A stretch of 13,814 nucleotides of DNA from positions 1 through 13,814 of the IMG/VR virus record IMGVR_UViG_2740892423_000026; one strand, 5' to 3'. Under the pieces are notes generated by a model. That model made no database searches and was not told the DNA's origin. It saw only the letters and a program-made list of their open reading frames with translations. Made by a program: the position numbers and the translations under genes. Within the stretch, counting starts at the first letter, position 1. Every line of letters starts with the position of its first letter. This stretch comes from a virus. Taxonomy: Duplodnaviria > Heunggongvirae > Uroviricota > Caudoviricetes. Positions 9,729-10,957 of this stretch are shown here, one piece after another.

Positions 9729-9780
9729 AAAAAAGAAAAACCGCAGACACGACGTATGCATGACGTGCTGCGGTTTATGC
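9729..9780. terminator. Bidirectional terminator-like hairpin (repeat copy A) between the tfa remnant and the convergent GIY-YIG gene
   Basis: AAAAAGAAAAA, then CCGCAGACACGACGT..ACGTGCTGCGG imperfect inverted repeat, then TTTATGC. A-tract upstream and T-rich tract downstream let it act on both strands. Confidence 0.55.
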
Positions 9781-9795
9781 TTATCACTTAAAGAC

Positions 9796-10569
9796 TCAAA
9801 AATTAGGTGAGTAACGGACCGGGGACATAGCTCCTTTTTTTCTTAATTCATCTGGTATTTTTTTTCCAAGATAAAGATTTGCTATTTCAGGTGGGGCTTC
9901 TCGACCTTCAAAACCATAGCGCGAACTTTGTGTTGCCTCAAAGTCAGGATCCTCGTCCCAGTATTTCAACGAAGGGAAATTTTCACGTGTTGATTTGAGC
10001 CATTTATCAGCAATGAAAACCCCTCGAACGATCCCTCTTACAGTAGCAAGAATGATTTCTGCTTGGCTGGCGCGAGAGACATTAATGCGCCAGCTAAATC
10101 GAACCGCATCATAAAGCTCTGAATCCTTTGCACTTCTGTTAACGGATATCATTAATGCTTTATGATGAAATGTTATGGTTTCGGGCTGATATGTTGCTAT
10201 CAACTCTTTGACATGCGCGGCGCCGAATTCATTGCTGCCAGCACCATTCATGATATTCGTTAACCCAGGGTAGGCATCAATAAGTGCTGCTTCAACTTCG
10301 TACGCCGTCTTTTCATCAGTCATTCCGTGTCGATGGATGACATGGATAACTTCAAGTCCTGCTAACCTTATTTCTCTAATTTGCTTTAGCTTGTTGCTCA
10401 GTAACTCGTCATCATCAGTCGCTGCCACTTCACCGCGCATATGGGCAAATACGCGGTTACCTTTGCCTTTCCCTACATAGAAGGTGCTTCCGTCCCTCGG
10501 ATCAATCAATCGGTATACATACCAGCCAAGGTGTTCAATTACTCCAGAAGGAAACTCAGTAATATCCAT
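9796..10569 (-). CDS. GIY-YIG-type nuclease domain protein (N-terminal GIY-YIG-like domain, about 150-aa C-terminal region of unknown function)
   Basis: From the first ATG (10569): [47 protein letters not shown].., i.e. VYR-(10 aa)-YVGKGKGNR..H spacing like GIY-YIG (compare UvrC GVYRM..IYVGKAK..R), followed by acidic E and N-containing segments. The ORF track extends to a TTG at 10620; neither start has a clear Shine-Dalgarno. Confidence 0.6.
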
Positions 10570-10753
10570 TTTGCAATATCTGTGAATTATTTGTGAGACG
10601 TATATTAATGAACATTGCAAGGGCTCACAACTAGTAGTGTTGAGAAAGCCATCGGGAAAATGAGGCTAATTCTTTGAATTTACATAGTAAAAAAAGATAC
10701 TTTTCCTCATAGTGTGAGCTAATTTTATGTTTCGTTTGATGATCGGACCGGTC

Positions 10754-10794
10754 TCAAAAACCGCAGGCACGTTGTATGCAAGAACGTGCTGTGG
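10754..10794 (-). terminator. Terminator-like hairpin (repeat copy B), related to copy A at 9729..9780
   Basis: TCAAAAA then CCGCAGGCACGTT-GTATGCAAG-AACGTGCTGTGG. On the - strand the hairpin is followed by TTTTTGAG. About 33 of 39 positions are shared with copy A by eye. Confidence 0.45.
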
Positions 10795-10957
10795 CTGGCT
10801 GGTGAACTTCCAATAGTGCGAATATTGAATGATGTCCAGCCGTTACCGTTTTTACGTGTTTATTAGTGAACAAACCACTCGTCAGCAGACTCCTAGGTAT
10901 GAACAAAAGTTTTAGCTGAAACTCTATCTGTGGTGCGCGTAACAGAAGTGTAATAAA

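Follow-up and report, generated by a model that had tools for sequence, protein, structure and literature searches.

A conserved terminator-like hairpin family brackets a prophage-borne CMoRE/PD-T4-3 gene and probably acts as a homology patch at a cargo hotspot

Morons, a concept of Hendrix and Juhala, are extra genes that carry their own promoter and terminator and lie between conserved genes of lambdoid phages. At the P2 and P4 defence hotspots, a fixed slot in related prophages is filled by one or another defence or accessory gene (Rousset et al. 2022; Vassallo et al. 2022). PD-T4-3 was described by Vassallo et al. (2022; PMC9519451), and CMoRE, a modification-dependent type IV restriction enzyme that cuts phage DNA containing hydroxymethylcytosine, was described in Nature Communications in 2026 (PMC12923530). 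CMoRE protects a natural isolate against T-even phages, and close homologues are reported to cleave DNA containing 5-hydroxymethylcytosine (5hmC) or 5-glucosylhydroxymethylcytosine (5ghmC) and to protect against the same phages (PMC12923530). Here we describe a 13,814-nucleotide (nt) stretch of Caudoviricetes DNA (IMG/VR record IMGVR_UViG_2740892423_000026, positions 1 to 13,814; hereafter the window), in which a CMoRE/PD-T4-3 gene lies between two related hairpins of about 40 bp. We consider it probable that this hairpin is a shared terminator that serves as a short patch of homology at a prophage cargo hotspot, and that recombination between prophages duplicated it.

The gene, at 9796-10569 on the minus strand, encodes 257 amino acids (aa) when its start is set as in RefSeq WP_000355482.1, from a locus of E. 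coli 4588 (L004) that is identical to the window from about position 9590 on. Residues 2-257 of the protein match positions 1-255 of the 256-position PADLOC profile PD-T4-3 (PDLC04031; E = 7.7e-140), and phmmer comparison with the PDB aligned it with the whole chains of 9U75, the crystallised CMoRE of E. coli O157:H7 (E = 2.9e-171), and 9U7U (E = 9e-151). Pfam places a LEM-3-like GIY-YIG domain (PF22945) at residues 45-127 of the 274-aa open reading frame (ORF), and the C-terminal half of the protein aligns with the modification-sensing domain of CMoRE. NCBIfam has no model for this GIY-YIG protein, and Pfam finds no homing-type DNA-binding domain in it. Like CMoRE/PD-T4-3, this is a single-gene, prophage-carried system; the match is full length, with no difference at the protein level. 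The initial annotation had taken the gene for a homing-type insertion, a view that is not borne out. We assign 9796-10569 as a prophage-borne predicted defence gene, CMoRE/PD-T4-3, and not as a homing endonuclease, which corrects a likely misannotation. The 50,697 records of cultured phages contain no CMoRE homologue above 60% identity, compared with 853 E. coli genomes that carry the gene and its surroundings as described below.

The two hairpins are direct repeats in the same orientation, at 9736-9775 (hairpin A) and 10756-10796 (hairpin B), and were recovered as family D14 in a repeat search. Their consensus is AAAAACCGCAG(A/G)CACG..GTATGCA..ACGTGCTG(C/T)GG. By MAFFT and local alignment they share 33 of 38 bases, with one 1-nt indel, and are about 86% alike. 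In local alignment, copy A scores at most 26 against the remainder of the window, a value that none of 300 dinucleotide-preserving shuffles reached (mean, 13.1; standard deviation, 1.2; maximum, 17). A covariance model built from 35 alleles of the element identifies exactly two sites in the window, hairpin A with 58.8 bits and hairpin B with 61.5 bits, both on the plus strand. The repeat noted in the initial annotation is therefore real. No Rfam family covers either hairpin. The copies had also been placed directly beyond the ends of the gene, which is correct for copy A, ending 20 nt past the stop codon, but not for copy B, which is found 186 nt before the start codon, with the upstream region and a tRNA-derived fragment in between.

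Folding confirms that both copies can form terminator-like hairpins, and the predicted terminators point leftward, on the minus strand. The minus-strand RNA of copy A folds with -19.8 kcal/mol (z = -5.6) and is followed by UUUUUCUUUUUU (U5CU6); its plus-strand RNA folds with -20.8 kcal/mol and is followed by UUUAUGCUU. Copy B is weaker on the minus strand (-14.2 kcal/mol; z = -1.4; then UUUUU) because a G-U pair of the plus strand becomes an A-C mismatch there. Copy A, with its GC-rich stem and U-tract shortly past the stop codon, is the predicted intrinsic terminator of the CMoRE gene, and it possibly also terminates the convergent late operon. Copy B, a stem and U5 located beyond a remnant of dinI, is predicted to be the weakened relic terminator of that dead gene, of which about 90 bp are left. 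A simple terminator scan listed neither hairpin, and this reading rests on folding and U-tracts; the long loop and the bulge may be behind the scan's miss.

The dinI remnant was recognized by alignment with the intact dinI genes of phages mEp460 and PhiR49_2, in both of which a homologous single hairpin lies 66 nt past the dinI stop codon. In the window, the 3' untranslated flank of dinI occupies 10797-10862 and the truncated 3' end of the gene, with a 15-bp deletion, runs from 10863 to about 10950, both on the minus strand. This stretch has megablast matches to annotated DinI genes in 94 phage records, and the ORF over it has no Pfam match. The homology to dinI breaks off at a separate terminator-like hairpin (10958-10976, minus strand), found by the terminator scan, which ends an XRE-ImmA operon.

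Comparison with other genomes indicates that the gene is part of a mobile unit. A cassette of 982 bp is present in 853 of 5426 complete E. coli genomes at 95.6-100% identity. Phage mEp460 has the corresponding empty site, in which a single hairpin separates a tfa remnant from an intact dinI. The left flank there agrees with that of copy A in the window at 135 of 147 positions, the right flank matches that of copy B, and the hairpin is close to the copy-A allele. The tfa 3' remnant at the left flank of hairpin A (9592-9726, plus strand) is 92% identical to the mEp460 stretch preceding the hairpin, and RefSeq annotates the equivalent stretch in another locus (L012) as a partial tfa without its N-terminus. 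A 191-nt query across the empty site is contiguous in 955 of the 5426 genomes. The cassette is thus best read as an insertion relative to the common arrangement, in agreement with the suggestion that the gene was acquired independently. The empty site first proposed, with tfa followed by one hairpin and the ImmA/XRE block, is absent from all 5426 genomes when sought with a synthetic query joining the tfa remnant, one hairpin, the truncated dinI and the ImmA/XRE flank. The right-hand module of truncated dinI and ImmA/XRE seems always to come with the cassette.

At least three left and at least three right flanks of the cassette were found. On the left lie lambdoid tfa, the pinE invertase gene of e14-like prophages, or an acyltransferase module (L3). 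On the right, the neighbours are dinI, a Dcm methyltransferase with a type II restriction enzyme, or an AraC regulator beside a P4-like satellite, and the junctions include half of the tRNA gene serU, a full hairpin with dinI, and half a hairpin with restriction-modification genes. Left and right junction types assort independently among genomes, which argues for frequent exchange at this locus. In all contexts examined, hairpin A follows the gene at its 3' end, and leftward homology ends at the foot of the hairpin stem. The region upstream of the gene (10570-10739, minus strand), its presumed promoter, travels with the cassette and is conserved in all contexts; from 10642 it is about 83% similar to the region upstream of an SDH-type serine protease gene (L008, L077 and L049). 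The right end of the cassette is a 71-nt 3' piece of serU in 438 genomes. A full second hairpin with the dinI flank occurs in at most 167 of the 853 carriers, a count that also takes in another cargo, and other carriers have half a hairpin followed by restriction-modification genes. Among IMG/VR contigs, the serU, half-hairpin and full-hairpin ends were counted 12, 11 and 8 times. The hairpins had been taken as possible marks of the insertion junctions, but they were not made by insertion of the gene, nor is the second one needed for its spread.

The serU sequence was identified from the fragment next to hairpin B. Positions 10740-10763 on the plus strand read TGATCGGACCGGTCTCAAAAACCG, spanning the 3' side of the D-arm to the anticodon arm of tRNA-Ser(CGA), and 22 of 24 bases are identical to serU, with the ARAGORN-confirmed gene of E2348/69 as the reference. 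In three loci (L005, L006 and L012), the same position runs through the whole 3' part of serU to the CCA and on through 18 nt of native downstream flank. This is the signature expected of an element that was once integrated in serU. The last bases at the upstream end of the cassette are invariably GGACCGGTCTC(G/A)AAAACCG. The window keeps 24 nt of serU, the last seven of which, AAAACCG, are at the same time the first bases of hairpin B, so that the 5' edge of the hairpin overlaps the fossil. The joint between serU and the hairpin would be a 7-nt microhomology event. The anticodon arm itself, GTCTCGAAAACC, presumably resembles a Hin/Gin half-site. A Pin/Hin quasi-site at the AAAACC motif was considered on the same presumption and set aside.

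The hairpin is not particular to this cassette. A pattern scan of IMG/VR recovered 125 occurrences on 119 prophage-like contigs, compared with 0 expected by chance in the window. Clustering of the 80-nt flanks gave at least 19 left and at least 11 right classes in many combinations, including those that join pinE to the cassette (28 occurrences), tfa to dinI (20), tfa to an antirepressor-like flank (14), a second pin allele to dinI (12), pinE to dinI (7), the region upstream of the cassette to dinI (6) and tfa to the cassette (5). The element is thus a recurrent joint, as the suggestion of a recombination hotspot had anticipated. In a scan of GTDB with the same pattern, the matches listed are mostly chance ones; the true ones come from Escherichia, Shigella, E. 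albertii and assemblies contaminated with lambda. The latter include contigs (L136, L146, L156, L159, L169, L181, L188, L225 and L237) that are 99.8-100% identical to lambda 20.8-28.2 kb and are filed under a Chromatiales metagenome-assembled genome, Pseudoxanthomonas, Chromatium, Kitasatospora, Pseudomonas, Enterococcus and others, which represents contamination of public genomes.

The covariance model also identified other cargos bracketed by two hairpins in the same orientation. A class I methyltransferase occurs in this arrangement in 11 loci, with a spacing of 1049 bp and a duplicated 3' fragment of tfa of about 270 bp. The SDH-type serine protease (2 loci; spacing, 1602 bp) comes with a duplicated dinI 3' remnant of about 100 bp. 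DUF2971, the PADLOC candidate PDC-S31, together with DUF4236 is bracketed in 1 locus (2470 bp), with no extra duplication noted, and CMoRE combined with the Dcm methyltransferase and type II restriction enzyme in 2 loci (4170 bp), with half a hairpin and a dinI 3' remnant in between. Phage lambda has the same layout in its b region, where tfa is followed by a hairpin (22568-22608), ea47 on the minus strand, a second hairpin (24157-24197) and a dinI-type flank. The element, its orientation, the leftward cargo and the dinI-type flank are as in the window; the first lambda hairpin begins 11 nt after the tfa stop codon, and the second lies 239 nt upstream of ea47. The lambda arrangement differs in its cargo, ea47, which has no family match, in its spacing of 1589 bp, in the lack of a serU fossil, and in that hairpin 1 has no U-tract on the minus strand.

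Taken together, these features point to a moron at a prophage cargo hotspot. A single accessory gene is present or absent between conserved neighbours (occupied in 853 genomes, empty in 955), would be transcribed independently, has a canonical predicted terminator in copy A, and confers a predicted defence trait on the lysogen. Unlike in a typical moron, the terminator belongs to one conserved family common to many morons and to the neighbouring dinI, and it therefore also acts as a recombination joint. The comparison with the P2 and P4 hotspots is similar: the slot is fixed and is occupied by CMoRE, the Dcm methyltransferase with its type II restriction enzyme, candidate PDC-S31, the SDH-type protease or, in e14 of K-12, McrA. 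It differs in lying after tfa or pin, at the attachment-site-proximal end of lambdoid and e14-like prophages, and in having its boundaries marked by a repeated hairpin, of which there is no mention in the P2/P4 papers searched.

We propose the following origin for the pair. A stem-loop of about 40 bp lies right after tfa or pin in many E. coli prophages; where a U-tract follows it, it would act as an intrinsic terminator separating the late operon, read rightward, from cargo genes read leftward. The two copies in the window would derive from two parental prophages, and not from insertion of the gene. A cassette of hairpin, CMoRE gene and upstream region may have resided at the end of an element integrated in the tRNA-Ser gene serU; recombination within the shared hairpin or the 3' end of tfa would then have placed it behind lambdoid tail-fibre genes. 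A further crossover, between AAAACCG in the anticodon arm of serU and AAAACCG at the foot of the dinI hairpin of another prophage, would have brought a second, diverged hairpin upstream of the CMoRE gene. In each case the hairpin, in many instances along with neighbouring 3' sequence of tfa or dinI, would be a short patch for relaxed homologous recombination, which would explain why different cargo genes are bracketed by it. A two-parent origin would likewise account for a difference of about 14% between the copies while the cassette is nearly invariant. Phage Rad52-like recombinases are known to recombine short diverged homologies, including those at lambda stf-tfa (PMC3945230), and relaxed recombination of this kind is a sufficient mechanism for the hairpin joints.

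Several observations fit this proposal. The locus L012 has the intermediate form, with the tfa remnant, hairpin A, the cassette and a full serU fragment. The hairpin allele follows the left flank: that of the tfa/cassette combination is 1 nt from the allele of tfa/dinI and clearly apart from that of pinE/cassette, which places the crossover at the right edge of the hairpin. The allele of hairpin B in the window is the one found upstream of the SDH-type protease cassette.

Other origins of the pair were weighed. Short two-copy repeats are often chance matches, and GC-rich stems with U-tracts are common, so that two unrelated terminators might look alike by chance or convergence; this can be practically dismissed, as no shuffle reached the observed score, the covariance-model hits exclude chance, the loop and bulge sequences are common to both copies and not the stem alone, and the one family to which both belong has dozens of alleles at homologous positions. 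The initial annotation favoured a free-standing GIY-YIG homing gene sitting at its own cleavage site, with the hairpins as insertion junctions. The nuclease domain is indeed of a family that includes homing enzymes (Pfam GIY-YIG), an otherwise conserved site is found both with and without the cassette, and distant homologues in jumbo phages carry a homing-nuclease annotation. We nevertheless regard this as very unlikely, given that the protein is CMoRE with no homing-type DNA-binding domain in Pfam, that several unrelated flank combinations occur with no single cognate site, that most carriers have one hairpin only, and that cargos other than nucleases are bracketed in the same way. Equally improbable is a scenario in which the cassette entered a single hairpin by a transposition-like event and duplicated its target site. 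Direct repeats flanking a 1-kb insert and a single copy at the empty site are what it predicts, but the two copies, which also differ by an indel, reach only about 86% identity, against 95.6-100% for the cassette between genomes; hairpin B shares its allele with the upstream hairpin of another cargo; neither a transposase nor terminal inverted repeats lie between the copies; a serU fragment is found inside the right end; and the blocks duplicated elsewhere extend into tfa by about 270 bp or into dinI by about 100 bp, which a fixed staggered cut would not produce.

A fourth possibility, which we judge unlikely although less so than the preceding three, is that the hairpin is a dedicated recombination site, similar to an integron attC site or a quasi-site of Pin or a phage integrase, that organises arrays of cargo cassettes; as a structure-recognised site it would serve in the capture, stacking and swapping of cargo in lambdoid and e14-like prophages. 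Such a system would be integron-like but lack the integrase of integrons; Pin or a tRNA-targeting integrase, acting at the AAAACCG stem foot, might serve it instead. Part of the layout does resemble integrons, in that cargo genes are split by imperfect hairpins of one orientation and multi-unit arrays exist (L037, L089 and L010). In favour of a dedicated site, hairpin-cargo-hairpin units with at least six different cargos include two-unit arrays, flank homology breaks at the stem foot, pinE adjoins many of the loci, and the serU anticodon arm presumably resembles a Hin/Gin half-site. Yet no recombinase is consistently linked to the element: in the window, in mEp460 and in lambda, pin is missing from the neighbourhood of the hairpin, and the only integrase there is the prophage int. 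The cassettes bring their own upstream regions, the right junction passes through a 7-nt microhomology with the tRNA fossil, and the duplicated blocks vary (hairpin; tfa fragment and hairpin; hairpin and dinI remnant), as in homology-driven exchange, which explains the joints. We retain inter-prophage recombination at a shared terminator as the probable origin of the pair.

Certain findings weigh against parts of this interpretation. Termination at either hairpin is predicted from sequence alone, and no consensus sigma-70 site over the threshold was found by the promoter scan upstream of the CMoRE gene, although the 186-nt upstream region travels with it. Of 101 family members, a U-rich tail follows the hairpin on the minus strand in 59, on the plus strand in 47 and on at least one strand in 73; the remaining 28 have none on either strand, and termination therefore cannot be the only role of the family. 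The pattern used for the scans fixed CACG/CGTGCT and GTATGCA, that is, part of the stem and the loop, and the conservation of those bases is not readable from the resulting set. For the same reason, the covariation test over the 35 alleles tells little with its single compensatory pair, to which lambda hairpin 1 adds a second; the stem changes themselves replace C-G by U-A in 3 alleles and by A-U in lambda hairpin 1. The element is also not universal after pinE, as e14 of K-12 has no hairpin there (L255, 1209685-1211179). The order of events, with the serU form first and the hairpin form derived from it, rests on parsimony. Finally, the serU-hairpin junction exists as two alleles, CTCAAAAACCGCAG and CTCGAAACCCGTAG, which may reflect repeated formation or overwriting in subsequent exchanges.

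No part of this account is mechanistically new, as it describes ordinary, well-documented shuffling of prophage modules. What it adds is one conserved hairpin family that would be both terminator and recombination joint, and a serU attachment-site fossil on the cassette. The locus records both of the supposed routes to mosaic joints, short conserved homology at the hairpin and a 7-nt microhomology with a tRNA attachment-site fossil, and so is relevant to the long-standing question of whether phage mosaicism follows linker-sequence or illegitimate-recombination models. With respect to the CMoRE literature, the hairpin and serU boundaries of the cassette are new: term searches found no mention of a prophage context in PMC12923530 and none of the tail-fibre locus in the Vassallo paper (PMC9519451), and our literature search found no description of the hairpin family or the hotspot. 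A hairpin of about 40 bp after tfa or pin is a usable marker of this cargo and defence hotspot in E. coli prophages, back to lambda, and could help to harvest candidate defence genes and to delimit cassettes.

Some further observations concern the genes at this slot. The SDH-type (ClpP-like) serine protease (L008, 1909-3155; L077; L049) occupies the position of CMoRE, and its upstream region contains a decayed piece resembling serU as well as the hairpin B allele of the window; the gene has no match in PADLOC and is a possible defence candidate. The position behind pinE is taken by CMoRE in O157:H7 and many other strains; in K-12 the gene found there is mcrA, oppositely oriented, which encodes a further type IV restriction enzyme. 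In O157:H7 strain F1273 (L132, 20000-35000), a cryptic prophage of the e14/CPS-53 type is found on one side of the cassette and its serU piece, and on the other a P4-like satellite with an ABC-three-component defence system; the whole amounts to a compound defence island a long way from the actual serU gene. Jumbo phages of Serratia, Pectobacterium, Pantoea and Klebsiella (H171-H185) encode homologues of CMoRE that match it over the full length at 39-45% identity, for example at 6406-7161 of Serratia phage Moabite, and some of these are annotated as homing nucleases.

The window as a whole is the attachment-site-proximal arm of a lambdoid prophage integrated at ssrA; from the tail-fibre genes to the attachment site extends a cargo hotspot, whose accessory genes are transcribed leftward. 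At the left of the window, a J-like tail tip gene (1104-5042; 1312 aa) is internally repetitive: two of its segments, of 440 nt each (2056-2495 and 3007-3446), repeat in frame, are 93% identical and are offset by 951 nt, or 317 codons. The side tail fibre gene stf follows at 5770-9543 and has its own Peptidase_S74 chaperone domain (Pfam). A candidate small RNA, IS009 of Rfam, matches 9483-9683 on the plus strand at full length but below threshold (95.4 bits against a gathering score of 117); the match covers the 3' end of stf and the tfa remnant, and stops about 50 nt short of hairpin A. To the right of the 10958-10976 terminator lie the XRE-ImmA operon and then a Bro-N gene. The ImmA/XRE pair (11260-12174, minus strand) matches the capP/capH regulator models of PADLOC (5e-15 and 6e-11), with no genes of a cyclic-oligonucleotide-based antiphage signalling system (CBASS) adjoining it, and two small hypothetical ORFs at about 10991-11273 lie downstream of it in the same operon. 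A complete tmRNA gene, ssrA, is found at 13413-13775 on the minus strand (295.8 bits). In the identical genome locus, smpB lies beyond ssrA, so that the window ends at the attR side of the ssrA-integrated prophage.

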